Below are positions 3,465 through 35,270 of a DNA stretch of 35,270 bases, in pieces. Position 1 is the first letter of the stretch, and every line of letters begins with the position of its first letter. The notes under the pieces were generated by a model. It was not told the DNA's origin and did no database searches. It was given only the letters and a program-made list of their open reading frames with translations. Source of the DNA: Terriglobia bacterium (GTDB taxonomy: Bacteria > Acidobacteriota > Terriglobia > UBA7540). The position numbers and the translations under genes were made by a program. The stretch lies in NCBI GenBank assembly GCA_046704985.1, contig JBJKQV010000178.1, positions 1-35,270 on the forward strand. The letters run 5' to 3'.

Positions 3465-3494
3465 TTGACAGTAAATCTATAGCTCATCTATCCT
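3465..3494 (+). promoter_or_regulatory. Candidate sigma70-type promoter with embedded AATCTATA motif upstream of the Tat-protein genes
   Basis: TTGACA at 3465-3470 and TATCCT at 3489-3494 are separated by an 18-nt spacer. The spacer contains gtAAATCTATAGctcat. The site sits in an AT-rich patch within otherwise GC-rich DNA. Confidence 0.3.
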
Positions 3495-3612
3495 TGGGGT
3501 GTCGTGCCAATCGTTCCTGGAAGAGGAGCCAAGAACCCGCGACGCGCAAGCCGGGCTTGAGCGGCTGGCGCCCGGGGAAATTCCCGCAGGCAGGAGGCCC
3601 GTCGAACCCCTG

Positions 3613-5406: not shown

Positions 5407-5566
5407 CGTCCGGAATTCCGATCGCGCGGAGCGGGAGAGGGGTCCGCTTGTCGGCGGGGCACTGAAGACCAAGCAGATTCCTCGGGTCGGTTATGTGCCT
5501 CGGTCCTCGGAATAACCGAAGCGGAGGTTCTTTCAGCGAGCCGCGAAGGGAGGGGGGCTACGATTC

Positions 5567-7345: not shown

Positions 7346-7409
7346 ACTGCCGGTCTGCTCCATGTGGGCAGGCTGCGTGCAATCCCCGGCTTAAGGAGGG
7401 AAACAACTC

Positions 7410-9026: not shown

Positions 9027-9052
9027 GCGGTCCCGAAAGGGCTTGTCGTGGG

Positions 9053-10216: not shown

Positions 10217-10493
10217 AGCGCGGGACACCTCGAGTTTGTGGCCGTCCGGCTTGCGCGCGTCACTCTGCTGACGGAGCCCGGTTTACTCAAACCATCATAA
10301 GGCAAGACACAGTGAAACTGAAGGCGTCCCCCGGCGGGGGGACGGTGGCGGCTGAAGGGCCGTCGCGGCACCGCAAGCGCCTTTATAGATTACCAATTTA
10401 ATGGTACGCTATTCAACTCGTTTTACTCGCCGGGAGGCACTTGGCCCCCCGGGGGCAGTGACCCCCGGCGAGGACCTGGAAGGGAGGCGGGGC

Positions 10494-12155: not shown

Positions 12156-12229
12156 CCCCTTGGCGCAGCATGACGGGGAAAGGCCGCGAGTGCTCAGGCG
12201 CGGCTTCAGGGAAATGGAGGCAGTGGAAA

Positions 12230-16172: not shown

Positions 16173-17498
16173 CTACGGCTCGCTTCCTACCATGGTGGGC
16201 AGCAGAAGCACGTTGCCGCGCGCGCCGCGCACCGCCGCAATCACCTCCTGCGCCATGGGCAGGTCCATGGGCGTGCGCACGGCGTTGTAGCTCGCCGGAT
16301 CGCGCGTCACCCGCGCCACCCGCGCGTGCTCCAGCAACATCGCGCGCGCCGGTTCCTGCTCGGTCACGAAGTACCCCTGCGAGGCGATGTAGTCCACCAC
16401 GCGCTGCACCTGCACCTTCCAGTCGATGCCCACCACCAGGCGCAAATCCAGGTCCGCGGTGGCGGTGGGCGGAATCACGTTCGCCGACTGCGCCCCCGTC
16501 TGCCCCGACGACATGCCGTTGATGTTCAGCGAGGGCTGGTTGATCGCCTCCAGCAGCGGCCCGTCCGCCGTCTCCACGTGCCCCAGCCAGTAGGCGCGCA
16601 TGAGCATCGCATCGTTTTTGGGCGCGCGCTCGAGCGCCTGCTTCTCCGTCGCCGACAGCGGCGCCACCCCGTCGTAGAAATGCGGGATCAGCACCCGCCC
16701 CGTCGCGTCCTTCATTCCCGCCAGTAGGCGCGCCAACTCCAGGGCCGGATTGGGCGCCCAGTTGCCGTAGTGACCGCTGTGCAGCCCGTGGTGCGGGCCG
16801 TAGACCGTCACCTCAAGGTGCGTGTCGCCGCGCGCCCCGAACACCACCGTCTGCGCGCCGCTCTGGTCCACCGGGCCGTCGCAAATCAGCCAGATGTCGC
16901 CGTGCACCAGTTCACGATGCGCGTCCAGAATCCGCTCCAGATGCGGCGAGCCCGCCTCCTCTTCGCCTTCCCAGACAAACCGGATGTTGGCGCGCAGGGG
17001 AACCTTCGCCGCCCGCAGCGCGTCCAGCGCCGTCAGCTGCGCGAAGATCGCCGCCTTGTCGTCGCCCGCCGAGCGCGCGTAGATTCTCTCCTCGCCCTTC
17101 ACCGTTCGCAGGGTCGGAGTGAAGGGAGGCGTCTGCCACTCCGACGCTTTCACCGGCTGCCCGTCGTAGTGCGCGTAGAACACGACGGTGTGTTGCGCGC
17201 CCGGCGTCCGGATCTCGCCGTAAACCACCGCGGGCGACCCGGCGAGCGTCAACAGTTGCGCCGCGACACCCCGCTGCTTGAGTTGTTGGATAAGAAAAGC
17301 CGCGTTGCGCCGCAGCCCCTGCGGATCGGCCGCCACGTTGGGGATGGAGAGAAAGTGCGAGAACTGCTCGACCAGTTCCGCGCGATGCGCCGCCGTCCAA
17401 GCGCGCGCCGCTTCCGCCGGCGCCGGCGCCGTCTGCCCCCGCGCCGGCAACAGACTCATCAACCCCACCACGAGAACTACCCAGAGTTTTCGTAACAT
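16173..17498 (-). CDS. Secreted M20-family metallopeptidase (dipeptidase/carboxypeptidase type), ending at an in-frame TAG
   Basis: The signal peptide is MLRKLWVVLVVGLMSLLPARGQTAP (ATG 17498). M20 motifs are VVFYAHYDGQPV, SAGDDKAAI and FVWEGEEEAGSP. The ORF stops at TAG 16173-16175, inside the conserved C-terminal region. Confidence 0.8.
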   Translation of the reverse strand: MLRKLWVVLVVGLMSLLPARGQTAPAPAEAARAWTAAHRAELVEQFSHFLSIPNVAADPQGLRRNAAFLIQQLKQRGVAAQLLTLAGSPAVVYGEIRTPGAQHTVVFYAHYDGQPVKASEWQTPPFTPTLRTVKGEERIYARSAGDDKAAIFAQLTALDALRAAKVPLRANIRFVWEGEEEAGSPHLERILDAHRELVHGDIWLICDGPVDQSGAQTVVFGARGDTHLEVTVYGPHHGLHSGHYGNWAPNPALELARLLAGMKDATGRVLIPHFYDGVAPLSATEKQALERAPKNDAMLMRAYWLGHVETADGPLLEAINQPSLNINGMSSGQTGAQSANVIPPTATADLDLRLVVGIDWKVQVQRVVDYIASQGYFVTEQEPARAMLLEHARVARVTRDPASYNAVRTPMDLPMAQEVIAAVRGARGNVLLLPTMVGSEP

Positions 17499-23960: not shown

Positions 23961-25841
23961 TTATTGCGCGTCGTTGCCGCGGGGCAGGCCGGGGTAGTCC
24001 GGCTCGTTGTGCCCCAGGGCGCGGTTGAGGTTGAACGCCGCGCTGATGAGTCCCAGGTGGGTGAAAGCCTGGGGAAAGTTGCCCAGCGCCTCGCCGCACG
24101 CTCCCGTCTCCTCGGCGTAGAGGCCCAGGTGGTTGGCGTAGCCGTGCATCTTCTCGAAGATCAGGCGCGCCTCTTCGAGCCTTCGGCGGTCCACCCGCCC
24201 GGCGCGCGTCAGCGCCTCGACCAGCCAGAACGTGCACATGTTGAACGTGCCCTCGGTTCCCGACAGCCCGTCGGCCGATTCCTGCAGGTTGTAGCGGTGG
24301 ACCAGGCTATCGGCCATCAGCCCTCCCTGGGTTTGTGGGAGGTTGATGGCGTCGAGGGTGGCGAGCATGCGCGGGTCGGTGGGCGACATGAAAAAGACCA
24401 GGGGCATGATGAGCGCCGCAGCGTCGAGCGACCGGCTGCCGTAGTACTGCACGAACGCCTGGCGCCGGCGGCTCCAGCCCTGGCTGAGGATCTGCTCGTA
24501 GATCTGGTCGCGCGCCTCCAGCCAACGCGCGCGGTCGGCGGGAAAGCTGCGCTTATCGGCCAGGCGCAGCCCGCGGTCCAGCGCCACCCAGCACATGAGC
24601 TTGGAGTAAACGAACTGCCGCGGCCCGCCGCGCACTTCCCAGATGCCGCAGTCCTCCCTCTGCCAGTTGTCCGCCACCCAGTTGAGCAGCCGCCGCAGGT
24701 CGCGCCAGAGCTGGTAGGAGATGGGGCTGCCGTATTTGTTGTACAGATACACGGAGTCCATGAGCGCGCCGTAAATATCCAGTTGCAGTTGCCGATAAGC
24801 GGCGTTGCCCACGCGCACGGGGCGCGAGTCCCGGTAGCCGCCCAGGTGGTTGAGGGTCTGCTCTTCGATCTCGTGCCGGCCGTCGATGCCGTACATGGTC
24901 TGCAGCGACCCGTCGGGGTTCAGCTCGTGGCAGCGCGCTTCCAGCCACTGCATGAACTTGGAGGCTTCCTCGGTGAAGCCGATGCGCAGCAGGCCGTAGA
25001 GCGTGAAAGCGGCGTCGCGAATCCACGTGTAGCGGTAATCCCAGTTGCGCTCGCCCCCCAGGCTCTCGGGCAGGCTGCAGGTGGGCGCGGCAACGATGGC
25101 GCCGGTGGGCTCGAAGGTGAGCAGCTTCAGCACCAGCGCCGAGCGCCGCACCATCTCGCGCCAGCGCCCCTTGTAGGAGCACTTGCTCATCCAGCGCCGC
25201 CAGTAGCCCACCGTGGCCGAGAACATCTCGTGCACCTCGCGCTCGCTGAGCGCGCGGGCACAGACACCTTGGGTGGGCAGGTTCTCAAGCCGGAAGGATA
25301 TCGACTGGCCTTCCTGCAGGGTGAATTCTGCTGCCACGCCTCCTTTGCCGTCGGCCTCGAGCGCCTGGCGCGTCGCCAGGCTCAGGCTCTGCCGCTCGGA
25401 GCGGAAGCAGGCGCCCTCTCCCGGGCGGATTTCCAACTTGTGCGGGTCGCGCGCAAAATTGAACGCCGGCCGGCACTCGACGCGGAAGGGAAAAGTTCCG
25501 CGCACAGCCGCCACCCGTCGCACCAGCTGCGGCTGCTTCTTGGCCGACGGCCCGCTCCGAATGGGCATAAAGTCCGTTATCTCCCCCACCCCTTGCGTAG
25601 AGAGAAAGCGCGTCAGTAGCACGTTGGTGTCCGGCCAGTAAAATTGCTGGTGTTTCGCGCCTTCGATGGCCGGGGCGATCTGGAAGTGCCCGCCGCGCTC
25701 GGCATCGAGCAGGGAGGCAAAAACGCTGGGCGAGTCGAAATGGGGAAAGCAGAGCCAGTCGACCGTGCCGTCCATGCCCACCAGGGCCGCGGTGTGCAGG
25801 TCGCCGATAATGCCGTGATTTTCGATGGGCTGCTGGCTCAT
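23961..25841 (-). CDS. Glycoside hydrolase family 15 protein (glucoamylase/trehalase-like)
   Basis: The N-terminus [41 protein letters not shown] is the characteristic start of bacterial GH15 proteins. The later (alpha/alpha)6-type region contains [15 protein letters not shown] and [28 protein letters not shown] 25841 is preceded by GGAG. Confidence 0.9.
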
Positions 25842-25938
25842 GCCGTTCGTCTCCTGAGATTCAAGTGAAGGGTCATTATAGGCGCTTTGGGCTCGCGGTG
25901 AAACCCGGTTGCGGGCGATGGATCGCCCCGGGGATGGG

Positions 25939-25966
25939 TTGACATTTCCACCCGGGGCGGTAGAAT
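25939..25966 (+). promoter_or_regulatory. Candidate sigma70-type promoter of the tetR-led operon
   Basis: TTGACA (25939-25944), a 16-nt spacer and TAGAAT (25961-25966). It lies about 90 nt upstream of the TetR start codon, in the divergent GH15/TetR intergenic region. Confidence 0.5.
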
Positions 25967-25970
25967 GAAC

Positions 25971-25986
25971 TCGAACGGACGTTCGA
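25971..25986 (+). promoter_or_regulatory. Perfect 7-2-7 palindrome TCGAACG-GA-CGTTCGA, candidate TetR operator
   Basis: The inverted repeat starts 5 nt after the -10 hexamer, at or near the transcription start. This is the classic position for an autoregulatory TetR-family operator. Confidence 0.5.
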
Positions 25987-26055
25987 TTGAAGGCAGGGCA
26001 GCCGGTCTCCGGACGGCAACCACATCCCAGGCAGGGCGGCGGGGAGAGCCGCTTC

Positions 26056-26733
26056 ATGGCCAACCGCAACTCGCACCATTTCGACCGCAAGCTGGAGGCG
26101 ATCCTTTGCCGCGCGGCGGAGGTCTTTTGCGCGCGCGGCTACCATCAGGCCTCCATGCGCGACATCGCGCGCTCGACGCGCGTCAGCCTGGCGGGTCTCT
26201 ACTACTACTTCTCCAGCAAAGAGCAGCTTCTCTACCTCATCCAGCGCCACGCCTTCCAGACCCTGCTCGCCGAGGCGCGCCAGGAGCTTCGCACCCTCGC
26301 CGACCCCGAGCAGCGCCTGCGCGCTTTCATCCGCCTGCACTTGAAATTTTTCATCGAGCACCCCAACGAGATGAAGGTGCTCACCCACGAAGACCGTTCT
26401 CTGGGCGAGGAGTGGCGGCGCGAGGTTCACGCCCTCAAGAAAGACTATTACCGCCTGGGCTACCGATTGGTAGAGGCGCTCGCGGCGCGCCAGCGAATCG
26501 AGGATCTGAACCCGCGCCTGGCGGTGCTGGCGCTTTTCGGCATGATGAACTGGATTTACACCTGGTACAACTCGCAGGTGGACCCCGGCGCGCCGGAGAT
26601 GGCGCGCCGGATGGCGGACTGGTTTTTGCGCGGCATTTTGGGGCGGAGCAGCCGCCGGGCGGGCCGCCCGCGGCCGCCGCGGTCTCGGGCCGTGGCGCCT
26701 CGCGCCAAGCGCCCCGCGCGGCGCACGATTTGA
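26056..26733 (+). CDS. TetR-family transcriptional regulator with Arg-rich C-terminal tail
   Basis: The HTH region is [42 protein letters not shown] 26056 is preceded by GGGGAG. The C-terminal tail is [28 protein letters not shown]. Confidence 0.85.
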
Positions 26734-26756
26734 AAATTCAGGGAGGAGAACCCGAC

Positions 26757-27566
26757 ATGGCAACCACCACCACCTCGGCGACGGGAGCATTAATCAATTA
26801 TCGCGCGGAAGGCGGTTTGGCGTGGATCGAGATGAACGATCCCCCCGCCAACACCTACACCTACGAAATGATGCAGCAGCTCGACGCCGCGGTCCTCCAG
26901 GCGCGCATGGACGACGCCGTGCAGGTGCTCATCCTGTGCGGGGCGGGCGAGAAGTTCTTCTCGGCGGGCGCCAACATCAACATGCTCGCCAGCGTCACTC
27001 CGGAATTCAAATACTATTTCTGCCTGCACGCCAACGAGACCCTGATGCGCCTGGAGCAGACGCCCAAGCTGGTGATCGCGGCGCTCAACGGCCACACGGT
27101 GGGCGGAGGGCTGGAGATTGCCCTGGCGGCGGACATCCGCCTGGCGCGCCGCGACGCGGGCAAGATCGGCCTGCCGGAAGTTTCACTCGGCGTGCTGCCC
27201 GGCACCGGCGGCACGCAGCGCCTCTCGCGCCTGATCGGCAAGTCGCGCTCCATCGAGCTGATGGTCACCGGCCGCACCTTCTCTTTTGAGGAAGCCGAGG
27301 AGATCGGCCTGGTCAATCAAGTGCTCAGCCGCGACGGATTCCTTGAGGAAGTGGCGGCCTACTCGCGGCAGTTCCTTCCGCCCGCCAAGGCCGCGCGCGC
27401 CGTGGGGCGCATCAAGCGCGCCGTCTGCTCGGGCATGGAAGTGCCCCTGGGCGAAGGCCTGGCCATCGAGCGCGAGCTCCAGCAACACCTCTTCCAGAGT
27501 CAGGACGCCAAGGAGGGGTTGCGCGCCTACATCGAGAAGCGCAAGCCGAACTTCCAGGCCAAGTAG
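26757..27566 (+). CDS. Enoyl-CoA hydratase/isomerase (crotonase) family protein 1
   Basis: ATG 26757 is preceded by GGGAGGAG. The crotonase oxyanion-hole contexts are KFFSAGANI and NGHTVGGGLEIALAADIR. The end ...EGLRAYIEKRKPNFQ is typical of the family. Confidence 0.9.
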   Translation: MATTTTSATGALINYRAEGGLAWIEMNDPPANTYTYEMMQQLDAAVLQARMDDAVQVLILCGAGEKFFSAGANINMLASVTPEFKYYFCLHANETLMRLEQTPKLVIAALNGHTVGGGLEIALAADIRLARRDAGKIGLPEVSLGVLPGTGGTQRLSRLIGKSRSIELMVTGRTFSFEEAEEIGLVNQVLSRDGFLEEVAAYSRQFLPPAKAARAVGRIKRAVCSGMEVPLGEGLAIERELQQHLFQSQDAKEGLRAYIEKRKPNFQAK

Positions 27567-27580
27567 CGCTTCGCCGGCGG

Positions 27581-27645
27581 GTGCCGCCCTAAAGGGCAGC
27601 GCTACTAAGACGCCGCGGAACTGCTGCCCGGAAGGGCAGCGCTAC
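27581..27645 (+). repeat. Two copies of a hairpin-forming unit (..GCCC-NNAA-GGGCAGCGCTAC) spaced 40 nt apart
   Basis: aAAGGGCAGCGCTAC at 27591-27605 and gAAGGGCAGCGCTAC at 27631-27645. The second copy forms a perfect GCTGCCC-GGAA-GGGCAGC stem-loop; the first has one mismatch. GTAGCGC at 27563-27569 is complementary to the GCGCTAC tails. Confidence 0.4.
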
Positions 27646-27669
27646 ATTACGGATCAGAGTGGTTGCACG

Positions 27670-28404
27670 ATGAAGATTGCCGTCTCGGTCGCCGATAAGG
27701 AAAAGAAGCGCGGGGCGAAGTCGCCCTATTTCCAGGCGCTGGTGGAAGCGGGGGCGCGTCCGCAGGAGTTGGTGTTGTTCGCCGCTGCCGACCGCTCGCG
27801 CGCCGCGCGCGCCGAGCTCGACGGCGTGCTCTTTGCGGGCGGCGAGGACGTGGACCCGGCCTTCTACGACGAGAAAAAGAAATATGACAGCGTGAAGGTG
27901 AACCGCGCCCGCGACGAATTCGAGATGGCGCTGCTCGACCGCGCGCTCGAGGAGCGGTTGCCCATCCTGGGCATCTGCCGCGGCTCGCAGATGATCAACG
28001 TCAAGTTCGGCGGGGCCCTCTACCAGGACGTGCAGCGCGACGAGGCCACTACCCTCGAGCATCGCCGCGAGAAAGAGCGCCGCGAGCGCGTGCACCAGGT
28101 GGCGGTGACGGAGCCCGAGTCGCTGCTGGGAAGCGCCGTCTCCGGCGGCTGCCGCGTCAACAGCCTGCACCACCAGGCCATCAAGCGCGTGGGCCGCGGC
28201 CTGAAGGTCACCGCCTACTCCGAAGACGGGCTGGTGGAAGCCTTCGAGGACGGCGGCGAGTATCCTTTCTTGATGGCCGTGCAGTGGCACCCGGAGGAGA
28301 TCGTCGAGCAGCCCGAGCAGAAGAGGATTTTCGAGCAGTTCCTGGCCAAGTGCCGGGAAGCCGAAGCGCGCCGGACGGCGCGGGAGGTTTCTGATGCCGG
28401 ATGA
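27670..28404 (+). CDS. Class I glutamine amidotransferase-like / peptidase C26 (gamma-glutamyl amide hydrolase, PuuD-like)
   Basis: GVLFAGGEDVDP is present. The nucleophile elbow is PILGICRGSQMIN. NSLHHQAI is present. The His context is AVQWHPEE. ATG 27670 is the start; the upstream part of ORF 27286 overlaps the crotonase gene. Confidence 0.85.
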   Translation: MKIAVSVADKEKKRGAKSPYFQALVEAGARPQELVLFAAADRSRAARAELDGVLFAGGEDVDPAFYDEKKKYDSVKVNRARDEFEMALLDRALEERLPILGICRGSQMINVKFGGALYQDVQRDEATTLEHRREKERRERVHQVAVTEPESLLGSAVSGGCRVNSLHHQAIKRVGRGLKVTAYSEDGLVEAFEDGGEYPFLMAVQWHPEEIVEQPEQKRIFEQFLAKCREAEARRTAREVSDAG

Positions 28405-29185
28405 GCCCGTTTTGCTGGCGCGGCAGGGAGCGGTGGCGACCCTCACCCTCAATCGCCCCGAGAAGCTCAACGCCCTGGATGAGCCCATGCGCCGGGTACT
28501 CGACGCCGCGCTCGATCAGGTGGCCCACGAGCCGGCGATTCGGGTGGTGGTGATTACCGGCGCCGGCCGCGCCTTCTGCTCGGGCGGCGACGTGGAGGCC
28601 ATGCAGGAGCTCAAGACGCAGTTCCACTCCGTGAGCTTTCGCGGCTTCCTGGAGCTCGGGCACGAACTGGTGCAGAAGCTGCGCAGCCTGCCCAAGCCCG
28701 TGCTGGCTTCGGTGAACGGCCCGGCGCTGGGGGCGGGCATGAACCTGGCGCTGGCCTGCGACCTGCGCATCGCTTCCGACCGCGCCACCTTTGCGCAGGC
28801 GTTTGTCCGCCTGGGCCTGCACCCCGACTGGGGCGGTACCTACTTTCTGCCGCGCGTGGTGGGCGTGGGGCGGGCGATGGAGATGTTTTTTCTCGGCGAG
28901 GCGGTGGAAGCCGCGGAGGCGCACCGCCTGGGCCTGGTGAATTTCCTCGCCGTCCACGAGCGCCTGGCGGAAGAGACGCGCGGCCTGGCCGAGCGCCTGG
29001 CGGAAGCGCCGCCCTTGCCCCTCGCCTTGCTCAAGCAGTCGCTCTACGAGCGCGAGGAGACGGAGCTGGCGCGGGTGATGCGCCACGAAGTTGACGCGCA
29101 GATGAAGTGCTTTGAGTCGCAGGATTTCACCGAGGGTTTGCGCGCTTTCCTGGAAAAGCGCAAGGCTGTCTTCAAAGGGGCTTGA
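28394..29185 (+). CDS. Enoyl-CoA hydratase/isomerase (crotonase) family protein 2
   Basis: Motifs are LTLNRPEKLNAL, GAGRAFCSGGDV, NGPALGAGMNLALACDLR and EGLRAFLEKRKAVF. ATG 28394 overlaps the previous gene's stop (28402-28404) by 11 nt, which suggests translational coupling. Confidence 0.9.
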   Translation: MPDEPVLLARQGAVATLTLNRPEKLNALDEPMRRVLDAALDQVAHEPAIRVVVITGAGRAFCSGGDVEAMQELKTQFHSVSFRGFLELGHELVQKLRSLPKPVLASVNGPALGAGMNLALACDLRIASDRATFAQAFVRLGLHPDWGGTYFLPRVVGVGRAMEMFFLGEAVEAAEAHRLGLVNFLAVHERLAEETRGLAERLAEAPPLPLALLKQSLYEREETELARVMRHEVDAQMKCFESQDFTEGLRAFLEKRKAVFKGA

Positions 29186-29309
29186 CGAAGATCTGAGGAG
29201 CATTCTGGAGCGCGGCCGTCCGTCCGCCGGCGGACCGCCGCCTCCATCAGGCGTGGCCGGCCGGTCGCGCGCGGGGGACGGCCGGCGCTCGCGGAACGGA
29301 GAGCTTGGG

Positions 29310-30446
29310 ATGCTGAAACTTTCCAACTTCGACGACTGGATCGACTATTTCTACAGCTGGCAGAAGGACATCGGCCTCGACGCGCCGGAGTTCCTCGATT
29401 ACCGCTTCGAGGCCAAGTACGACTCGGTGCCGCCGGAAATCTCCTTCGGCGATTACCGCGGGCAGCTGCGCTGGAAGACGGTGATGCACATTCCCGACCA
29501 GCGCATCCGCGACGCCGTGCAGAACCTGGTGGTCTACCAGGGCGACACGGAATTCGCCTCCGTCGAGCAGCAGCGCCGGCTGTTCGAGACCGCCCCCAGC
29601 CGCTACGATTACCTGAGCCTGGTGCGGGTGATGACCGAGGAGATGCGCCACGGCTGGCAGATGAGCCACGTGCTGATCAGCCAGTTCGGGCGCTCGGGAC
29701 GCATCGAGGCGCAAAAGCTCCTGGAGCGCCGCGCCTTCTCCGACCAGCGCCTGCTCGGCGCCTTCAACCAACCCGTCAACGACTGGCTGGATTTCTTTAC
29801 CTACACCCAGTTTGTGGACCGCGACGGCAAGTTCCAGCTCACTATGCTCTCGCACTCCGCTTTCCTGCCCGTCGCCGAGAGCATGCCGCCCATGCTCAAG
29901 GAAGAGTCCTTCCACCTGGGCACCGGCAACAACGGCCTGGCGCGCGTCCTCAAGGCGCGGCGCATCCCCGTTTCCATCATCCAGAAGTACTTCAACAAGT
30001 GGCTGCCCACTTCCTACGACCTGTTCGGCACCGACCACTCCTCTTCCGCGCAGTGGGCCTACGTGTGGGGCCTCAAGGGGCGCTACGACGAGCGGAATTC
30101 GCCCGGCGGGGCGGACCGCGAAAACCTCAACGACCTGGCGCGCGAGCTCTACTACCAGGAAGTTTGCAAGCTTACCGAGACACTCAACAAGCTCATCCCC
30201 GACGATGAGCCGAAGATCCAGGTGCCCAGCCTGAAGTTCCACCGCCAGATCGGCGCCTACGCCGACCGGTACTACAACCTGCGCGGCGAAGAGATGACGC
30301 GCGCCGAGTTCGAGGCCTACCTGCCCACCGTCCTGCCTTCGCAGGAAGACGAGAGCCGGCTGCGGGATATTTTCAAGGAGGGCGGCTGGATCGTTCCCAA
30401 GGGCGAGAAGGAATTCGAGCCCTCCGAAGGAGCGCGCAAGAGGTGA
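29310..30446 (+). CDS. BoxB-like diiron oxygenase (benzoyl-CoA 2,3-epoxidase component B family), compact 378-aa form
   Basis: ATG 29310 is preceded by GGAGAG. The protein is collinear, from memory, with BoxB: YQGDTEFASVEQQRRL, TEEMRHGWQ (ExxH), FVDRDGKFQL, KEESFHLGTG (ExxH), IQKYFNKW, GLKGRYDE and KFHRQIGAYAD. The upstream part of ORF 29112 overlaps the crotonase gene and is P/G/R-rich. Confidence 0.75.
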   Translation: MLKLSNFDDWIDYFYSWQKDIGLDAPEFLDYRFEAKYDSVPPEISFGDYRGQLRWKTVMHIPDQRIRDAVQNLVVYQGDTEFASVEQQRRLFETAPSRYDYLSLVRVMTEEMRHGWQMSHVLISQFGRSGRIEAQKLLERRAFSDQRLLGAFNQPVNDWLDFFTYTQFVDRDGKFQLTMLSHSAFLPVAESMPPMLKEESFHLGTGNNGLARVLKARRIPVSIIQKYFNKWLPTSYDLFGTDHSSSAQWAYVWGLKGRYDERNSPGGADRENLNDLARELYYQEVCKLTETLNKLIPDDEPKIQVPSLKFHRQIGAYADRYYNLRGEEMTRAEFEAYLPTVLPSQEDESRLRDIFKEGGWIVPKGEKEFEPSEGARKR

Positions 30447-30460
30447 GGGAGGACGGCGCC

Positions 30461-31234
30461 ATGCCGCCTGAAAACACATCGCGGGTGGAATCGCAGAAGC
30501 AGGGCGCGGTCGCGCGGCTGACGCTCAACCGCCCGCCCCTCAACGTCCTCGACCTCGCCGGGCTGCGCGAGCTGCACGCGGCGGTCCAGGCGGCCGCGGC
30601 CGACCCCGCCGTGCGCCTGCTGGAGCTGCGCGGCGCGGGCGAAAAGGCCTTCTGCGCGGGCATGGAAGTGCGCGACCACTTTCCCGAGCGCGCGCCGGAG
30701 ATGTTGCGCGCTTTCCACGCCGCGGTGCGCGCCTTGCTCGACGCGCCTTGCCCCACCGTGGCGGTGGTGCAGGGCCACTGCCTGGGGGGCGGCATGGAAC
30801 TGGCCATGGCCTGCGACTTCATCCTGGCGGCGCGCGGCGCGCGCTTCGGCCAGCCGGAAATCAAGCTCGCCGCCTTTCCGCCCGTCGCCGCGGCGCTGCT
30901 GCCCTCGCTGATCGGCGAAAAGAAAGCGCTGGAGATGATCCTGACGGGCGACCCGGTGAGCGCGCAAGAGGCCGAGCGCTTGGGCTTGGTCAACCGCGTG
31001 GCGGATGATTTGCCCGGCGAAGCGGAGAAATTTTCGCAGAGCCTCCTGGCCTCGAGCCCGCGGGCCGCGGCGCTGGCGCGCCGCGCAACCCATCGGCCCT
31101 CGCGCCAAGCCTTCGAGAACGCTTTGCGCGAGGCGGAGCGCATTTATGTGGACGAGCTGCTGGCGAGCGAGGACGCCCGCGAAGGTTTGGAGGCGTTTCT
31201 CGCCAAGCGCCCGCCGGTTTGGAAGGGTAAGTAA
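30461..31234 (+). CDS. Enoyl-CoA hydratase family protein 3, dienoyl-CoA hydratase (Dch/BamR)-like subgroup (tentative)
   Basis: ATG 30461 is preceded by GAGGGAGGA. Motifs are LTLNRPPLNVL, GEKAFCAGMEV and QGHCLGGGMELAMACDF. GQPEIKLAAFPPVAAALLP and ERIYVDELLASEDAREGLEAFLAKRPPVW resemble my recollection of cyclohexa-1,5-dienecarbonyl-CoA hydratases. Confidence 0.85.
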   Translation: MPPENTSRVESQKQGAVARLTLNRPPLNVLDLAGLRELHAAVQAAAADPAVRLLELRGAGEKAFCAGMEVRDHFPERAPEMLRAFHAAVRALLDAPCPTVAVVQGHCLGGGMELAMACDFILAARGARFGQPEIKLAAFPPVAAALLPSLIGEKKALEMILTGDPVSAQEAERLGLVNRVADDLPGEAEKFSQSLLASSPRAAALARRATHRPSRQAFENALREAERIYVDELLASEDAREGLEAFLAKRPPVWKGK

Positions 31235-31261
31235 TCTTGCATATTTTCTTAAAGGAGCGAA

Positions 31262-31585
31262 ATGGACGAAACGCCGGAACTGGACCCGCAAATCTTGCAA
31301 GACCTCATGGCGCGCGGCGAAAAGTTGTTTCTGCTCGACTGCCGCGAGCCCTGGGAGCACAAGGTGGCGCGCATCGAGGGCGCGGAGCTGATTCCCATGC
31401 GCGAGATCGCCGCCAAGGTGGAGAAGATTCCGCGCGACTGCCAGGTGGTGGTCTATTGCCATCACGGCCAGCGCAGCCTGGCGGTGGCGCTCTGGATGCG
31501 CCAGGCGGGCTTCGAGGCGCTCAGCTTGAACGGCGGCATCGACCGCTGGTCCACGGAGATTGACGAAGCCGTGCCGCGTTACTGA
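31262..31585 (+). CDS. Single-domain rhodanese (sulfurtransferase)
   Basis: ATG 31262 is preceded by AAAGGAG. Motifs are LLDCREPWEH and the active-site loop VVYCHHGQRS. The 107-aa size is typical. Confidence 0.85.
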   Translation: MDETPELDPQILQDLMARGEKLFLLDCREPWEHKVARIEGAELIPMREIAAKVEKIPRDCQVVVYCHHGQRSLAVALWMRQAGFEALSLNGGIDRWSTEIDEAVPRY

Positions 31586-31611
31586 GCGGCGGGCCGCGGA
31601 GAGGAGCCCGG

Positions 31612-32112
31612 GTGAACAAAATCATGCTGCGATTGCGCGTCAACGGACGCGCTTACGAGACCGAGGCCGCACCCAACGAGCTGCTGCTCGACGTGCTGCG
31701 CACGCGCCTGGGCCTGACCGGCTCCAAGCGCGGGTGCGACGACGCGAGCTGCGGCGCCTGCACGGTGCTGGTGGACGGCCGGCCCCAGATGTCGTGCCTG
31801 ATGCTCGCCGTCTCCTACCAGGACGCCGAGATCACCACCATCGAGGGCGTGGCGGCTCCCGACGAGCTTCACCCGCTGCAGCTCGCCTTCATGCAGGAAG
31901 GCGGCGCGCAGTGCGGCTACTGCACGCCGGGAATGATTATGACCGCCAAGCATCTGCTCGACAGCAACCCCGAGCCCAGCGAGCAGGAGATTGACCAGGC
32001 GCTTTCCGGCAACCTCTGCCGCTGCACCGGCTACACGCAGATTCGCGCTTCCGTGCGCCGCGCCATCGAGCTGCTGCGCGAGCGCAAACCGCAGGAGGTG
32101 GCGAAACCATGA
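31612..32112 (+). CDS. Molybdenum hydroxylase small subunit, two [2Fe-2S] clusters (HcrC/CoxS-like)
   Basis: GTG 31612 is preceded by GGAGAGGAG. The plant-type cluster motif is GCDDASCGACTV...C. The second cluster motif is QCGYCTPG...NLCRCTGY. Confidence 0.9.
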   Translation: MNKIMLRLRVNGRAYETEAAPNELLLDVLRTRLGLTGSKRGCDDASCGACTVLVDGRPQMSCLMLAVSYQDAEITTIEGVAAPDELHPLQLAFMQEGGAQCGYCTPGMIMTAKHLLDSNPEPSEQEIDQALSGNLCRCTGYTQIRASVRRAIELLRERKPQEVAKP

Positions 32113-34409
32113 GCGCCCCGGTTCATTCCTCGCCCATCGGCGCGCGCGTTCCCATGCTCGACGCCCGCGAAAAGGTCACGGGCGCCGGCAAGTACGCCGC
32201 CGACCTCACCCTGCCCGGCATGCTGGTGGGCAAGGTCCTCCACAGCCCGCACGCCCACGCGCGCATCGTTTCCATCGATACCTCCGCCGCCGAAGCGCTG
32301 CCGGGCGTTCACGCCGTGGTCACCGGGCGCGAGACGCCCGTCAAGTACGGCATCCTGCCCATCGGCCACGACGAAACCGTTTTCGCTCCCCACAAGGTGC
32401 GCTACATCGGCGACAACGTGGCGGGCGTGGCGGCGGAATCGGAAGCCCTGGCCGAGGAGGCCTTGCGGCTCATTCGCGTCGAGTACGAAGTTCTGCCCGC
32501 GGTCTTTGACCCGGAAGAGTCCATGCGCGCCGAGGGCGAGCTGATTCAGGAAGGCCGCGCGCACAACATCGAGAAGGAATATCACCACCAGTTCGGGGAC
32601 GTGGAGAAAGGTTTCGAGGAGGCCGACTACGTCCGCGAGGACCGCTTCGACTGCGCGGAGGTGACGCACGCGGCCATGGAGCCGCACGCGACGCTGGCGC
32701 AGTTTGCGCCCGACGGCAAGCTCACCGTCTGGTCGTCCACGCAGGTGCCTTATTACCTGATGAAGACGCTGGCCGCCACGTTGCAAATTCCCGAAGACGA
32801 CGTGCGCGTCATCAAGCCGCTGGTGGGCGGCGGATTCGGCGGCAAGAGTGAGGTGATTCCGCTGGAGCCGGCGGCGGCGGTGCTGGCGCGCAAGGCCGGG
32901 CGGCCGGTGCGGATTACCTACACGCGCGAAGAAGTTTTTCTGATGCACCGCGGGCGCCCGCGCACGATTGTGGAACTGCGCACCGGCGTCGGGCGCGACG
33001 GGCGCCTGAAGGCCGTGGCGGCGCGCATCGTGATGGACGGCGGCGCTTACTGCGGCTACGGCCCGGTCACCATCCTCTATTCCGGGGCGCTGCTCAACGC
33101 CATGTACGACATCCCGCACGTGCGCTTTGACGGCTACCGCGTGCTGACCAACAAGCCTGCCTGCGGAGCCATGCGCGGCCACGGGACGGTCGACGCGCGC
33201 TTCGCTTTCGAGGTGCAGCTCGACCGCATCGCCGCCACCCTGGGGATGGACCCGGCCGAAATCCGCCGGCGGAATTTTCTGCGCCCACCTTGCGTGACCG
33301 TGAACGGCCTGCGCGTGCTCAGCTACGGCTATCCGGAGTGCGTCGAGCGCGCCGTCGAGCAGTCGGGCTGGGCGCGCAAACGCGGCAAGCTGCCCTACGG
33401 CAAGGGCATCGGCCTGGCGGGGAGCCACTACGTGAGCGGCGCCGCCAATTCCATCATCCGCGGCGACATGCCGCACACCACCATCAATTTGGAAATCGAC
33501 GCCGAAGGCCAGGTGACGCTCTATACGGGCGCTTCGGAAATCGGCCAGGGCTCCGACACCGTGCAGGCGCAGCTGGCGGCCGGGGAACTGGGCCTGCGCG
33601 CCGAGCAGGTGCGCCTGGTCGCCGCCGATACCGGGCGCACGCCCGTCGACCTGGGCAGCTACTCGAGCCGCGTTACCTTCATGGCCGGCAACGCCACGCT
33701 CCAGGCGGCGCGGCAGGCGCGCGAAAAATTGCTGGCCGCCGCGGCCGCGGAATTCGACACGACGCCGGAAAACCTGGAGATGTCGCAGGGCCGAATCGTT
33801 TGCCGCGACGACCCGCGCCGCAAGATGAGCCTGGGCCAGGCGGTGCGCCTGGCGGCGCCGGAGGGCTTGCTGAAGAGTGTTGGCACTTACGCGCCGCCGC
33901 AGGCCGCGCGCGGCGGCAAGTTCAAAGGCGCGGGCGTGGGGCCCTCGCCCGCCTACAGCTACAGCGCCCAAGTGGCTGAGGTGACGGTGGACACGGAAAC
34001 CGGCGAGGTGCGCGTGGAGCGCATCGTCGCCGCGCACGACTGCGGCAAGGCCCTCAACCCCCTGACCGTGGAAGGTCAGGTGGAAGGCTCGGTGTGGATG
34101 GGGCTGGGTCAGGCCATGCAGGAAGAGATGACGTGGCGCCAGGGCCGGCTGATGAATCCCGGCTTGCTCGAGTACCGCTCCGCCTCGACGCTCGAGTCGC
34201 CGCCCATCGAGCCCATTCTGGTGGAGAGTCACGATCCGGAAGGCCCCCTGGGCGCCAAGGAGGCGGGCGAAGGGTCACTCGCCGCCACCTTGCCCGCCGT
34301 CGCCAACGCCGTCTACGACGCGGTGGGAGTCTGGATAACCACACTGCCCATTACGCCCGAGAAGGTTTTGAAAGCACTGGAAGAGAAAAAGAAAGCGGAA
34401 CCCAGATGA
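32109..34409 (+). CDS. Molybdopterin-binding large subunit of a xanthine dehydrogenase-family enzyme (HcrA/CoxL-like)
   Basis: ATGA start/stop overlap with the small subunit. The a/b-hammerhead N-terminus is DAREKVTGAGKYAADL...HSPHAHARIVSID. GGGFGGK, MRGHG and a C-terminal GAKEAGEG are present. I saw no CODH-type VAYRCSFR loop. Confidence 0.9.
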   Translation: MSAPVHSSPIGARVPMLDAREKVTGAGKYAADLTLPGMLVGKVLHSPHAHARIVSIDTSAAEALPGVHAVVTGRETPVKYGILPIGHDETVFAPHKVRYIGDNVAGVAAESEALAEEALRLIRVEYEVLPAVFDPEESMRAEGELIQEGRAHNIEKEYHHQFGDVEKGFEEADYVREDRFDCAEVTHAAMEPHATLAQFAPDGKLTVWSSTQVPYYLMKTLAATLQIPEDDVRVIKPLVGGGFGGKSEVIPLEPAAAVLARKAGRPVRITYTREEVFLMHRGRPRTIVELRTGVGRDGRLKAVAARIVMDGGAYCGYGPVTILYSGALLNAMYDIPHVRFDGYRVLTNKPACGAMRGHGTVDARFAFEVQLDRIAATLGMDPAEIRRRNFLRPPCVTVNGLRVLSYGYPECVERAVEQSGWARKRGKLPYGKGIGLAGSHYVSGAANSIIRGDMPHTTINLEIDAEGQVTLYTGASEIGQGSDTVQAQLAAGELGLRAEQVRLVAADTGRTPVDLGSYSSRVTFMAGNATLQAARQAREKLLAAAAAEFDTTPENLEMSQGRIVCRDDPRRKMSLGQAVRLAAPEGLLKSVGTYAPPQAARGGKFKGAGVGPSPAYSYSAQVAEVTVDTETGEVRVERIVAAHDCGKALNPLTVEGQVEGSVWMGLGQAMQEEMTWRQGRLMNPGLLEYRSASTLESPPIEPILVESHDPEGPLGAKEAGEGSLAATLPAVANAVYDAVGVWITTLPITPEKVLKALEEKKKAEPR

Positions 34410-35270
34410 GTTTGCCGGCATTTGAAGTAGTGAGACCGAAGACGCTCGAGGCGGCGCTGGAAGCGTTGGCGCAGCACGGCCCGGCGGCGCAAGCCGTTGC
34501 GGGAGGCACCGATCTGATTCCCAGCATGAACCAGCGGCTCTTTGCGCCGCGCGTGCTGGTGGACCTGAAGCTCCTGCGCGAGCTCGACTACCTCCGCTAC
34601 GACGCCGGGCGCGGCCTGGAGATCGGCGCGCTCGCGACCATCACCTCGCTCGCCGAATCGCCGCTGCTCGCCGGGCATTTTCCGGTGCTGAGCGAGGCGG
34701 CGAAGACCATCGCCAGCCCGCTGCTGCGCAACATGGGCACGCTGGGCGGCAACCTCTGTCTCGACACGCGCTGTCTCTACTACAACCAGTCGGACTTCTG
34801 GCGCCAGTCGCTGGGTTACTGCCTGAAGAAAGACGGCACGGTCTGCCACGTGGCGCCGGGCGGCCAATTCTGCTGGGCGGTCTTTTCCGGCGACACGGCG
34901 CCGGCGCTGCTGACGCTGGGGGCGCGCGTGGAGCTGGCGGGGCCGCGCGGCCGGCGGGAGATTCCTCTTGAGGATTTCTACGTCAACGACGGCATCGTGC
35001 GCTTGAGCAAGGCCGCGGACGAATTGGTGACCGCGGTGCGCGTGCCCGCCTCGGCGGCGGACTGGCGGGGCGCTTATCGCAAGCTGCGCATTCGCCAGTC
35101 GATTGACTATCCGCTCGCCGGTGTGGCGGCGGCGATGCGTGTGGATTCGGGCGGCGTCTGCCTGGAAGCGCGCCTGGCGCTGACCGCCGTCAACCCCGCG
35201 CCGCGATTGGTCGCGGCGACCGAAAAATTGAGCGGCAAGACTTACGACCCGAAGCTCGTCGAGGAAGTGG
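34406..35270 (+). CDS. FAD-binding medium subunit of the molybdenum hydroxylase (HcrB/CoxM-like) with Cys-rich insert; 3' end outside window
   Basis: This ORF is not in the track because it has no stop in the window. ATG 34406 overlaps the large-subunit stop (ATGA). My translation is MSLPAFEVVRPKTLEAALEAL...AVAGGTDLIP...NMGTLGGNLCLDTRCLYYNQSDFWRQSLGYCLKKDGTVCHVAPGGQFCWAVFSGDTAPALL..., which is FAD_binding_5-type with an inserted Cys loop. Confidence 0.85.
   Translation, partial: MSLPAFEVVRPKTLEAALEALAQHGPAAQAVAGGTDLIPSMNQRLFAPRVLVDLKLLRELDYLRYDAGRGLEIGALATITSLAESPLLAGHFPVLSEAAKTIASPLLRNMGTLGGNLCLDTRCLYYNQSDFWRQSLGYCLKKDGTVCHVAPGGQFCWAVFSGDTAPALLTLGARVELAGPRGRREIPLEDFYVNDGIVRLSKAADELVTAVRVPASAADWRGAYRKLRIRQSIDYPLAGVAAAMRVDSGGVCLEARLALTAVNPAPRLVAATEKLSGKTYDPKLVEEV

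Follow-up and report, generated by a model that had tools for sequence, protein, structure and literature searches.

The window, the whole 35,270-nt stretch of Terriglobia DNA that we analyzed, joins an uncharacterized short relative of BoxB to an Hcr-type molybdenum enzyme in one predicted soil acidobacterial operon. We put at about one half the probability that this operon serves the O2-dependent breakdown, as CoA thioesters, of a benzoyl-CoA-like aromatic acid under a PaaR-type TetR repressor, with the Hcr enzyme as an optional funnel. A literature search found no published characterization of a cluster of short BoxB and Hcr and no matching characterized pathway, in keeping with the initial annotation, which had proposed an undescribed route.

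Gene order and upstream signals

Pfam and NCBIfam profiles placed tetR and nine further genes, ten in total, on the plus strand between positions 26056 and 35270 (Table 1). All genes named by the initial annotation were recovered in place, although it had counted ten after the regulator. The overlapping start and stop codons that it had described occur at four junctions (11 nt at C26/ECH2 and 4 nt each at diiron/ECH3, HcrC/HcrA and HcrA/HcrB), and the remaining intergenic gaps after tetR measure 23-124 nt. This spacing, together with an operon scan of the window in which no convincing terminators were seen, suggests that the genes are co-transcribed. The cluster had been thought to continue past the window end; it probably ends with hcrB, which in eight related loci precedes a Macro-domain gene and then, in most, housekeeping genes. 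In these loci hcrB comprises 316-370 codons (335-338 in six of the eight), of which the window portion holds 288.

Table 1. Features of the cluster and its upstream region (window coordinates)
Feature	Position	Strand	Basis
Predicted sigma-70-like promoter, TTGACA-16 nt-TAGAAT	25939..25966	+	Consensus scan, 11/12 matches; pattern match alone
Perfect palindrome TCGAACG-GA-CGTTCGA, putative PaaR-type TetR operator	25971..25986	.	Consensus match
tetR, TetR-family regulator with TetR_C_24 (acyl-CoA-type) ligand domain	26056..26733	+	Pfam
ECH1, hydratase-type crotonase, motifs GGGLE ... LPE	26757..27566	+	Pfam, NCBIfam
C26, Peptidase_C26/class-I glutamine amidotransferase-like (GATase) amidohydrolase	27670..28404	+	Pfam, NCBIfam
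ECH2, PaaG-type isomerase-like crotonase	28394..29185	+	NCBIfam, alignment
Short BoxB-like diiron oxygenase, 378 aa, PaaA_PaaC family	29310..30446	+	PF05138, TIGR03225, PDB 3PER
ECH3, hydratase-type crotonase, motifs GGGME ... QPE	30443..31234	+	Pfam, NCBIfam
Single-domain rhodanese	31262..31585	+	Pfam, NCBIfam
HcrC-like small subunit, two [2Fe-2S] motifs	31612..32112	+	Fer2 + Fer2_2, TIGR03193
HcrA-like molybdopterin subunit, 766 aa	32109..34409	+	TIGR03194, 1RM6_A
HcrB-like FAD subunit with Cys-rich insertion, cut by window end	34406..35270	+	1RM6_B

The predicted promoter lies in the divergent intergenic region 5' of tetR, and the palindrome starts 5 nt past its −10 hexamer. The palindrome agrees with the Sakamoto consensus for the PaaR operator, CNAACGNNCGTTNG, as quoted in PMC6651687, and the window contains one such site compared with 0.08 expected. 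Across 82 related loci we found 42 operator sites, 41 of them just upstream of tetR or the diiron gene; where no tetR adjoins, the operator stands upstream of the diiron gene itself. In 41 of the 82 loci, its position corresponds to that in the window. The best PDB match of the TetR protein was 3VPR.

The same profiles detected no BoxA, BoxC, benzoyl-CoA reductase or CoA ligase in the window, as had been reported, and none within the 10-kb flanks of close relatives. Neither the window nor the acidobacterial relatives encode an oxygenase reductase or a low-potential ferredoxin for Hcr, and genes for aldehyde dehydrogenase (ALDH), thiolase and 3-hydroxyacyl-CoA dehydrogenase (HADH) are missing from the window's own cluster.

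Enzymes encoded by the cluster

Sequence comparison supports the earlier assignment of the diiron protein as a BoxB-related oxygenase of the CoA-ester type. Its best NCBIfam match was BoxB (TIGR03225, 214.8 bits versus a cutoff of 499.1), its best PDB match was BoxB 3PER (E = 5.6e-52), and a Foldseek search with a poor predicted model also ranked BoxB at the top; the PaaA model reached only 36.6 bits. In the alignment, the iron ligands E81, E111, H114, D170, E199 and H202 are invariant throughout the short-BoxB family. Of the residues of BoxB listed as orienting benzoyl-CoA in PMC5489048, Gln116, Thr119, Ser123, Phe193 and Phe203 are conserved and only two are changed (Phe206 to Tyr and Thr210 to Val). 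The short proteins form a monophyletic sister family of BoxB, and identification as BoxB proper was rejected on the basis of the separate clade, the low TIGR03225 score and four missing BoxB insertions. Because of this low score and the missing insertions, substrate and reaction could differ from those of BoxB.

Of all genes that accompany the diiron gene, the crotonase gene ECH1 is the best conserved (65-84% identity across phyla; best PDB match 2PPY, 243 bits), and both ECH1 and ECH3 retain two-glutamate hydratase motifs. ECH2 lacks both catalytic Glu residues, has the motif AF...GLxPDxGG in common with E. coli PaaG (alignment with 4FZW_C and 2EJ5) and scored 228.4 bits against the PaaG model TIGR02280 (cutoff, 345). 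ECH3, initially annotated as Dch-like, was rejected as a Dch equivalog, since it reached 174.9 bits against TIGR03189 (cutoff, 292.5) and generic enoyl-CoA hydratase models scored almost as well. Given the isomerase-type site of ECH2 and the hydratase motifs of the other two, we also discarded the idea that the three crotonases are a Dch remnant. The C26 protein scored 108.7 bits against the PuuD model (cutoff, 266), and its gene holds the place taken by ALDH in other acidobacterial clusters. UDG, Macro and C26 genes are embedded in the clusters, with Methyltransf_28 nearby, and have no role in our model. The rhodanese, whose best matches were MoeZ/MoeB C-terminal domains, occurs among relatives only in loci that also bear Hcr (L005 and L037) and would probably serve the sulfur chemistry or supply of the Mo cofactor.

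The HcrA-like (α) subunit scored 996.1 bits against TIGR03194, just over the cutoff of 994.55, and 765 bits against 1RM6_A (49% identity), versus at most 307 bits against quinoline, CO, nicotinate, aldehyde and xanthine enzymes; it also retains the AKEAxEG catalytic-Glu motif. The HcrC-like (γ) subunit remained below the cutoff of TIGR03193 (192.4 versus 257.8 bits). The HcrB-like (β) subunit matched 1RM6_B with 213 bits and 42% identity, and Cys117, 122, 138, 146 and 155 of Thauera aromatica all align to Cys in it. PMC11760930 describes this Cys loop of the Hcr FAD subunit as binding a [4Fe-4S] cluster and cites a work whose title associates the loop of the Thauera enzyme with an inverted, reductive flow of electrons. 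Collectively, these similarities support an enzyme of the Hcr type rather than of the CO, aldehyde or xanthine dehydrogenase type, as originally suggested.

Related loci and the role of the Hcr enzyme

The short-BoxB family was found in at least 592 species-level genomes and its core in hundreds of uncultured soil species, in three genomic contexts that all share the CGAACG-N2-CGTTCG operator. In Gemmatimonadota, the short BoxB lies within a complete box/paa-like lower pathway: 43 loci of this type have the order TetR-ECH1-ALDH-thiolase-ECH2-diiron-GDPD-HADH-(ECH)-Amidohydro_2, a gene set that covers every box/paa-type lower-pathway step. In Acidobacteriota, the same core is combined with HcrCAB, and in Binatia, Verrucomicrobiota and others the short BoxB stands alone with a ferredoxin/NuoF-like reductase. 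The combination with Hcr is found again in no fewer than 16 further loci of Acidobacteriota and is therefore not due to chance; the gene-order survey also bore out that it is conserved and operon-internal in relatives. Among the downstream genes that had been sought, ALDH, thiolase and HADH were present in relatives and CoA activation in two, as L063 has an AMP-ligase (a CoA ligase) and L086 two paired CoA transferase genes (PF01144); no BoxA turned up within 10 kb of the cluster in close relatives.

HcrCAB is an accessory, lineage-specific module of the wider short-BoxB pathway, since in most lineages the pathway occurs without it. In L010, L013, L037 and L086, Hcr sits within the pathway run, flanked by ECH3 or a CoA transferase on one side and by Amidohydro_2-HADH on the other, and it is absent from the close relatives L006 and L057 and from all Gemmatimonadota loci, as one would expect if it were a peripheral funnel. 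In our model, the diiron oxygenase, judging from its ligands and substrate-positioning residues, would epoxidize the aryl-CoA ring, ECH2 would isomerize the epoxide or later enoyl intermediates, and ECH1 and ECH3 would carry out hydrolytic and hydration steps. ALDH, HADH, thiolase and Amidohydro_2, which relatives carry in the cluster, are presumably encoded elsewhere in this genome. The Hcr enzyme would reductively strip the para-hydroxyl from 4-hydroxybenzoyl-CoA or a close analog and thereby funnel phenolic acids into the oxygenase pathway. Counting against this model are the wide margin by which the diiron protein misses the BoxB equivalog model, the identity of only 49% between HcrA and the Thauera enzyme, the position of HcrA right at its model cutoff, the low γ-subunit score, the embedded UDG, Macro and C26 genes, and the lack in the window cluster of a reductase, a low-potential ferredoxin and ALDH, thiolase or HADH genes. 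Moreover, reductive dehydroxylation requires strongly reducing electrons, which is awkward beside an O2-dependent step. The hybrid operon of the initial annotation stands as a conserved combination, but the real unit is the short-BoxB pathway with its PaaR-type operator. The clash of lifestyles that had been seen between BoxB and Hcr is softened because Hcr is most simply a peripheral funnel, and nothing in our analysis supports a heteroaromatic substrate.

We consider it unlikely that Hcr and the diiron pathway are mere neighbors acting on different substrates, their adjacency being inherited synteny within Acidobacteriota, the only phylum in which Hcr occurs among the related loci. The Mo enzyme would then dehydroxylate or hydroxylate another phenolic or an N-heterocyclic compound. 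The synteny does include passengers, as the UDG, Macro, C26 and Methyltransf_28 genes have no evident pathway role; the γ subunit falls under its Hcr cutoff, and dehydroxylases of the XO family that act on non-CoA phenolics exist, such as Ucd (PMC11760930). Yet Ucd lacks the [4Fe-4S] loop found here, Hcr lies inside the pathway run in the four loci named above, and the window shows 4-nt overlaps and a single predicted operator and promoter. The association also occurs in two separate diiron clades, and all three HcrA homologs sampled from the Hcr side lay within the same cluster. Quite unlikely, too, is a role of the Hcr-like complex as redox partner of the oxygenase, in which its FAD/[4Fe-4S]/[2Fe-2S] chain would replace BoxA in giving two electrons for O2 activation, which the Mo site might obtain by oxidizing an aldehyde of the pathway or by hydroxylating a ring. 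Reductases, whether BoxA-like or not, are indeed missing from the acidobacterial clusters, 14 loci from other phyla carry an obvious one (a thioredoxin-like [2Fe-2S] ferredoxin and a NuoF-like FMN/[4Fe-4S] protein) directly 3' of the diiron gene, hcrC of L083 starts 10 nt past that gene, and the window cluster has Hcr but no ALDH. However, the oxygenase can do without Hcr, as L006, L057 and the 43 loci of the Gemmatimonadota type encode it but lack both Hcr and a neighboring reductase, and the joint presence of ALDH and Hcr in six loci (L010, L013, L037, L054, L055 and L073) and in L086 means that Hcr is not simply an ALDH replacement. The conservation of the 766-aa Mo subunit (58-80% identity among related clusters), its catalytic-Glu motif and its best similarity to a reductase favor Hcr-type catalysis by the enzyme itself, and the title cited above connects the [4Fe-4S] loop with reductive electron flow.

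Very unlikely, in our estimate, is a nonaromatic operon in which the acyl-CoA oxidized by the diiron enzyme would be aliphatic or alicyclic and the crotonases would serve ordinary beta-oxidation under a FadR-like TetR. The best NCBIfam matches of the regulator are fatty-acid FadR-type models, all far below cutoff, the thiolase, HADH, ECH and ALDH of relatives belong to generic beta-oxidation families, and the window has no aryl-CoA ligase. Against this stand the conserved ring-orienting residues of BoxB, the PaaG type of ECH2 and an operator that follows the PaaR consensus and differs from the Thermus FadR site. Two lineages, moreover, carry aryl-CoA-type partners: Hcr in the present one and, in L063, HGD-D/BcrAD together with a ligase.

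Comparison with known systems

In the box pathway of Azoarcus/Aromatoleum evansii, the reductase BoxA, the benzoyl-CoA 2,3-epoxidase BoxB, the dihydrolase BoxC and the aldehyde dehydrogenase BoxD act together, and BoxR is the canonical regulator. BoxB is the nearest solved and modeled relative of the diiron protein, with identical iron ligands and a nearly identical benzoyl-CoA pocket, and clusters of relatives hold ALDH and the beta-oxidation-like enzymes needed past ring opening. In contrast to the box pathway, the diiron protein is approximately 95 residues shorter, BoxA and the large BoxC are missing, small crotonases including a PaaG type are present, control would be exerted by a TetR/PaaR-type repressor, and the adjacent reductase, where present, consists of the thioredoxin-like ferredoxin and NuoF-like protein. 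The Paa pathway with PaaR (Thermus thermophilus TTHA0973) has the identical operator consensus, a TetR_C_24 regulator, a PaaG-type isomerase and the same logic of CoA ester, diiron epoxidase, crotonase, ALDH, HADH and thiolase; however, the oxygenase here is a single BoxB-like subunit with BoxB-like pocket residues instead of PaaABC(D)E, and PaaK, PaaZ and PaaI are absent.

The urolithin C dehydroxylase UcdCFO of Enterocloster is likewise a three-subunit reductive dehydroxylase of the XO family, but its FAD subunit has no [4Fe-4S] loop (PMC11760930) and it acts on a compound other than a CoA ester. Thauera aromatica HcrCAB (PDB 1RM6) belongs to an anaerobic benzoyl-CoA-reductase context, whereas the enzyme described here lies in an oxygenase operon of a probably aerobic or microaerobic soil acidobacterium, beside a rhodanese, with a γ subunit below cutoff and no ferredoxin or ferredoxin-regenerating enzyme nearby. 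Both have three subunits in the small-large-FAD order, as the initial annotation had stated, and the identity of the α and β subunits, the conserved [4Fe-4S]-loop Cys residues and catalytic-Glu motif, and an α subunit that reaches the NCBIfam equivalog cutoff link the acidobacterial enzyme to that of Thauera.

Gene content of the predicted operon

Ten co-directional genes fill the final 9.2 kb of the window, and their start sites were checked against ribosome-binding sites and the N termini of homologues (see the table). Four of their junctions overlap and the other gaps measure 23 to 124 nt. Because the Pfam and NCBIfam scans return the genes listed in the initial annotation, the identities given there were correct; its count was not, since the nine genes after the TetR gene had been taken for ten. 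The genes located 5′ of the operon (GH15, SDR, a large outer-membrane barrel, M20 peptidase, an MFS transporter, Kelch and an MR/MLE enzyme) are unrelated to it, and the nearest, the GH15 gene, is divergent. Content 3′ of the window was deduced from related loci fetched from other genomes. Neither boxA nor boxC turned up in the window or in the annotated surroundings of the related loci, where genes were assigned by Pfam and by their similarity to reference proteins. An Rfam scan of the whole window detected no family, and a terminator scan returned 9 candidates versus 8.2 in shuffled sequence, which is chance level and speaks neither for internal termination nor against it.

Features of the window and of related loci (coordinates refer to the sequence in the first column)
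Sequence	Feature	Coordinates	Strand	Basis or remark
Window	Outer-membrane beta-barrel protein with CarboxypepD_reg domain, 1236 aa	18152-21862	-	unrelated to operon
Window	GH15/trehalase-like glycosidase	23961-26090	-	no relation to operon
Window	Near-consensus promoter, TTGACA-16-TAGAAT	25939-25966
Window	Palindrome core	25972-25985
Window	TetR, TetR_C_24 ligand domain	26056-26733	+	Pfam/NCBIfam
Window	Crotonase ECH1	26757-27566	+	Pfam/NCBIfam
Window	Peptidase_C26/GATase amidohydrolase (gamma-glutamyl-hydrolase type)	27670-28404	+	Pfam/NCBIfam
Window	Crotonase ECH2	28394-29185	+	Pfam/NCBIfam
Window	PaaA_PaaC-family diiron protein	29310-30446	+	Pfam/NCBIfam
Window	Crotonase ECH3	30443-31234	+	Pfam/NCBIfam
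Window	Rhodanese	31262-31585	+	Pfam/NCBIfam
Window	[2Fe-2S] subunit (HcrC-like)	31612-32112	+	Pfam/NCBIfam
Window	Molybdopterin subunit (HcrA-like)	32109-34409	+	Pfam/NCBIfam
Window	FAD subunit (HcrB-like)	34406 to window end	+	Pfam/NCBIfam
L001	UDG-superfamily and Macro-domain genes	8625-9140 and 16506-17039		same places in L002, L004, L005, L009, L010, L013, L037, L083, L086-L088
L017	Thiolase, ECH2 and diiron gene as one 1048-codon ORF; broken HADH gene	7964-12710		long-read MAG
L038	PtsP-like and glyoxalase/VOC genes	5908-9901		also in L029, L043, L056, L074
L058	Glycerophosphodiester-phosphodiesterase-family (GDPD) gene	11100-11864		likewise in 42 other loci
L063	Cluster with HGD-D genes	1779-12094		Methylomirabilota MAG DATEAO010000403.1
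L085	Oxidored_molyb/Mo-co_dimer (sulfite-oxidase-family) gene and small possible haem-binding protein	9721-11443		Terriglobia
L086	Two PF01144 CoA-transferase subunits	5916-8409		JGI 3300027835 contig

A short BoxB-like oxygenase and its crotonases

Among solved structures, BoxB of A. evansii (3PER; E = 5.6e-52) comes nearest to the diiron protein, PaaA being far weaker (E about 1e-4). In alignments, the BoxB diiron ligands Glu120, Glu150, His153, Asp211, Glu240 and His243, named in PMC5489048 along with the benzoyl-CoA-orienting residues, correspond to E81, E111, H114, D170, E199 and H202, and none of the six varies within the short family or in canonical BoxB. The orienting residues Gln116, Thr119, Ser123, Phe193 and Phe203 (BoxB numbering) are kept as well, and two orienting positions are altered in most of the short family (Phe206 to Tyr165 and Thr210 to Val169). 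In contrast to BoxB, however, the diiron protein is missing four segments, and its match to the BoxB model TIGR03225 (214.8 bits versus a cutoff of 499.1) covers only model positions 85-322 of 471. Other representatives of the short family score 100 to 234 bits, and the full-length canonical controls P0160 (475 aa) and P0159 reach 908.5 and 672.2 bits, respectively. In a library-wide HMMER search, which yielded few full-length 50%-identity representatives, the short forms measured 351-383 aa versus 462-475 aa for canonical BoxB, and a neighbour-joining tree placed them in a single clade outside the latter. The original description of a BoxB-like diiron protein thus stands as far as its nearest relative is concerned, but the protein falls below the TIGR03225 cutoff, within a separate short clade, and BoxB in the curated sense is ruled out by that score. 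An AlphaFold2 model based on 38 close homologues was poor (mean pLDDT of 58), and since Foldseek ranked BoxB first on it at a TM of only 0.46, this ranking carries little weight. Database names within the short family are inconsistent and include BoxB, PaaI, 'phenylacetic acid catabolic protein' and hypothetical.

BoxC, the 2,3-epoxybenzoyl-CoA dihydrolase, is a large ring-opening enzyme of the crotonase superfamily with about 550 aa. The three crotonases of the operon are single-domain proteins of 263-269 aa, and BoxC is absent from the 25 best NCBIfam families of each. ECH1 is the best conserved neighbour of the oxygenase, with 65-84% identity across phyla, and we infer that it may hydrolyse the ring. 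Both ECH1 and ECH3 retain the hydratase motifs GGGxE and PE. ECH2 lacks both hydratase glutamates and carries the AF...GLxPDxGG segment common to E. coli PaaG and a Geobacillus PaaG-like protein; it reads GAGMNLAL...AFVRLGLHPDWGG, E. coli PaaG (4FZW_C) reads GAGATLAL...AFSKLGLIPDCGG, and the hydratases aligned alongside read GGGxE...PE. ECH2 thereby shares the features of a PaaG isomerase-type active site, in which both glutamates are replaced and the Asp of GLxPDxGG, presumably the catalytic residue of PaaG-type isomerases, is present. Its best NCBIfam model is TIGR02280 (PaaG) at 228.4 bits, below the cutoff of 345.15. ECH3, initially considered Dch-like, did not bear this out: its TIGR03189 score of 174.9 bits lies 118 below the cutoff of 292.5 and scarcely above the generic models EchA19 (166) and PRK09076 (161), so that it provides no evidence for a dienoyl-CoA hydratase. 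The idea of a Dch left over from the anaerobic pathway was rejected on this sub-cutoff score, and the best PDB matches of ECH3 are ordinary hydratases.

An Hcr-type molybdenum enzyme

The HcrA-like subunit aligned with T. aromatica HcrA (1RM6_A) at 765 bits and 49% identity over 758 positions, versus at most 307 bits for quinoline oxidoreductase, CO dehydrogenases and the nicotinate and aldehyde enzymes. It retains the glutamate motif AKEAxEG and just passes TIGR03194 (996.1 versus a cutoff of 994.55 bits); PGAP labels on its close homologues are split between Hcr alpha and only 'molybdopterin cofactor-binding domain protein'. Compared with PF00941, about 40 extra residues are inserted in the HcrB-like subunit, and all five cysteines of 1RM6_B (Cys117, 122, 138, 146 and 155) align with cysteines in this subunit. 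In Hcr this inserted loop binds an extra [4Fe-4S] cluster, and urolithin dehydroxylase, unlike the FAD subunit of the window, is without it (PMC11760930). The smaller subunits scored below their cutoffs: the HcrC-like (γ) subunit reached 192.4 of 257.8 bits, with the glyceraldehyde-dehydrogenase gamma model scoring similarly, and the HcrB-like (β) subunit reached 317.4 of 404.55 bits on a gene cut by the window end. Overall, the enzyme is predicted to be of the Hcr type, with its substrate putative. The initial proposal of a 4-hydroxybenzoyl-CoA-reductase-like enzyme is thus upheld by the HcrA and TIGR03194 scores and the conserved loop cysteines, as well as by the comparison it had suggested with CO, aldehyde, nicotinate and quinoline enzymes. 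No ferredoxin gene was found in the window cluster or in related acidobacterial clusters.

HcrCAB adjoins the diiron gene in the window and in 11 of the first 82 loci, as well as in L083 and L085, and is missing from close relatives with ample flank, namely L006, where ECH3 is directly followed by the Macro gene, and L057. A reverse check from three HcrA homologues led to the same cluster each time (3/3). The arrangement, whose co-occurrence elsewhere the initial annotation had proposed to survey, recurs in acidobacterial loci. In L086, one of the three loci reached from HcrA, the CoA-transferase subunits lie between the diiron gene and hcrC and could stand in for the missing CoA ligase. In L085, the sulfite-oxidase-family and possible haem-binding genes lie between hcrB and the Macro gene. 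The Mo enzyme as a general replacement of the aldehyde dehydrogenase was rejected because several loci carry both.

Cluster architectures, predicted regulon and pathway

At least 592 species-representative genomes encode the short BoxB family; the best 80 of these are all MAGs and belong to Acidobacteriota, Gemmatimonadota, Binatia, Verrucomicrobiota, Methylomirabilota, Thermodesulfobacteriota and others. To score their architectures, the fetched loci were compared by tblastn with reference proteins identified by Pfam, because a simple gene caller merged or extended some ORFs and nanopore-derived loci such as L017 were frameshifted; the joined ORF and broken HADH gene of L017 most likely represent such errors and not fusions. 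Three architectures were found. The Gemmatimonadota-type (a), comprising 43 loci, reads TetR-ECH1-ALDH-thiolase-ECH2-diiron-GDPD-HADH-(ECH)-Amidohydro_2 and holds all enzyme classes required downstream of BoxB- or PaaABC-type epoxidation. Type (b), found in Acidobacteriota, reads TetR-ECH1-(C26 or ALDH)-(UDG)-ECH2-diiron-ECH3-(rhodanese)-HcrCAB and continues with Amidohydro_2-HADH-ECH in a deeper clade. Type (c), comprising 14 loci from other phyla, has in this order the diiron gene, a thioredoxin-like [2Fe-2S] ferredoxin and a NuoF-like FMN/[4Fe-4S] protein; the homologues matched by the latter all share at least 74% identity, the named ones being Binatia or Deltaproteobacteria MAGs.

Several accessory genes accompany these clusters. 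The GDPD gene always directly follows the diiron gene in the Gemmatimonadota-type loci, in the slot of ECH3 or ferredoxin elsewhere. The C26 amidohydrolase occupies the slot of the aldehyde dehydrogenase of other acidobacterial clusters and is present with or without Hcr (e.g., in L006); a connection with gamma-glutamyl or aminobenzoyl conjugates is purely speculative. A UDG-superfamily gene, absent from the window, lies within many acidobacterial clusters and a Macro-domain gene terminates most of them, neither with an evident aryl-CoA role. Genes for a GAF-domain PtsP-like PEP-utilising protein and a glyoxalase/VOC protein lie 5′ of the diiron-ferredoxin-NuoF operon, with a radical-SAM gene between them in L038, L056 and L074, and this synteny is conserved across several phyla. 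In L063, a TetR gene, two HGD-D genes (2-hydroxyacyl-CoA dehydratase/benzoyl-CoA-reductase type), a BcrAD_BadFG ATPase and an AMP-dependent ligase precede the short BoxB-like gene, which is followed by SDR, Amidohydro_2 and crotonase genes. L063 provides a second example of an O2-dependent oxygenase combined with a radical enzyme of the 'anaerobic' kind.

A perfect palindrome, TCGAACG-GA-CGTTCGA (25971-25986), begins 5 nt after the −10 hexamer of the window promoter, and its core matches the consensus 5′-CNAACGNNCGTTNG-3′ derived for PaaR of Thermus thermophilus, in the form quoted in PMC6651687. This predicted operator is the only one in the window (0.08 expected) and lies ahead of the entire gene run; no further copies beyond chance were found within the cluster with up to 2 mismatches allowed. 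The 82 fetched loci contain 42 predicted operators (43 in 1.33 Mb including that of the window). Just upstream of tetR lie 28 of the 42, another 13 are positioned 23-34 nt upstream of the diiron gene, and 1 is elsewhere; the 13 belong to type (c) loci without an adjacent tetR. This placement suggests that a PaaR-type regulon is conserved across phyla and would have the short BoxB-type oxygenase as its common target.

We propose a PaaR-type-controlled, CoA-dependent epoxide pathway built around the short BoxB-type oxygenase, to which lineage-specific modules would have been added. In Acidobacteriota, the Hcr module would turn a para-hydroxylated aryl-CoA into the substrate of the oxygenase and so feed it into the epoxide pathway, a reading to which we assign a probability of roughly 50%. 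That Hcr is optional yet operon-internal fits the expectation for such a peripheral funnel; that Hcr and the diiron pathway are unrelated neighbours we consider unlikely, and a non-aromatic substrate of the operon has a slim chance of being correct. The funnel assigns no role to the embedded C26, UDG, Macro and GDPD genes, and neither the oxygenase reductase of types (a) and (b) nor a low-potential electron source for Hcr is accounted for.

Alternatively, as initially suggested, the Fe-S/FAD chain of Hcr could supply electrons to the oxygenase, given that the window cluster contains no reductase and that the ferredoxin/NuoF pair holds the equivalent position in other phyla. However, most oxygenase clusters lack both Hcr and a reductase, Hcr is also found together with ALDH, and the Mo subunit has been conserved as a complete catalytic protein; we regard such a donor role as rather improbable. 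The same low odds apply to the broader idea that the diiron aryl-CoA epoxidase and the Hcr-type enzyme are coupled into a single redox system in abundant Acidobacteriota of soil. In its strongest form, electrons from the Mo site would pass through the [4Fe-4S] loop to the oxygenase in a self-contained circuit replacing BoxA; in a weaker form, strongly reducing 'anaerobic' dehydroxylation would routinely run within an oxygenase pathway. The HGD-D/BcrAD variant of Methylomirabilota is a parallel to the Hcr pairing.

Acidobacteriota and Gemmatimonadota rank with the most abundant bacteria in soil, and benzoate and 4-hydroxybenzoate are major lignin- and plant-derived aromatics. A distinct PaaR-operator pathway with interchangeable modules (Hcr, ferredoxin/NuoF, or HGD-D/BcrAD with a ligase) would yield predictions on substrates, electron donors and the regulon, and would alter how the potential for soil aromatic-carbon turnover is deduced. 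If Hcr chemistry truly runs beside an oxygenase, this would also bear on the O2 tolerance of low-potential enzymes. In metagenome surveys, the same genes have been taken to indicate 'aerobic' as well as 'anaerobic' degradation of aromatics (e.g., PMC4842900). Our literature search found no description of the short BoxB family or of a BoxB-like cluster with Hcr, in agreement with the earlier view that the arrangement matches no described pathway; the only mention was in that tundra metagenome paper, which lists hcrAB and boxB among the genes of Acidobacteria bins without analysis. Collectively, the operon is not a categorically new system but a variant of the known CoA-epoxide (box/paa) strategy, and what is new is its association with Hcr-type chemistry.
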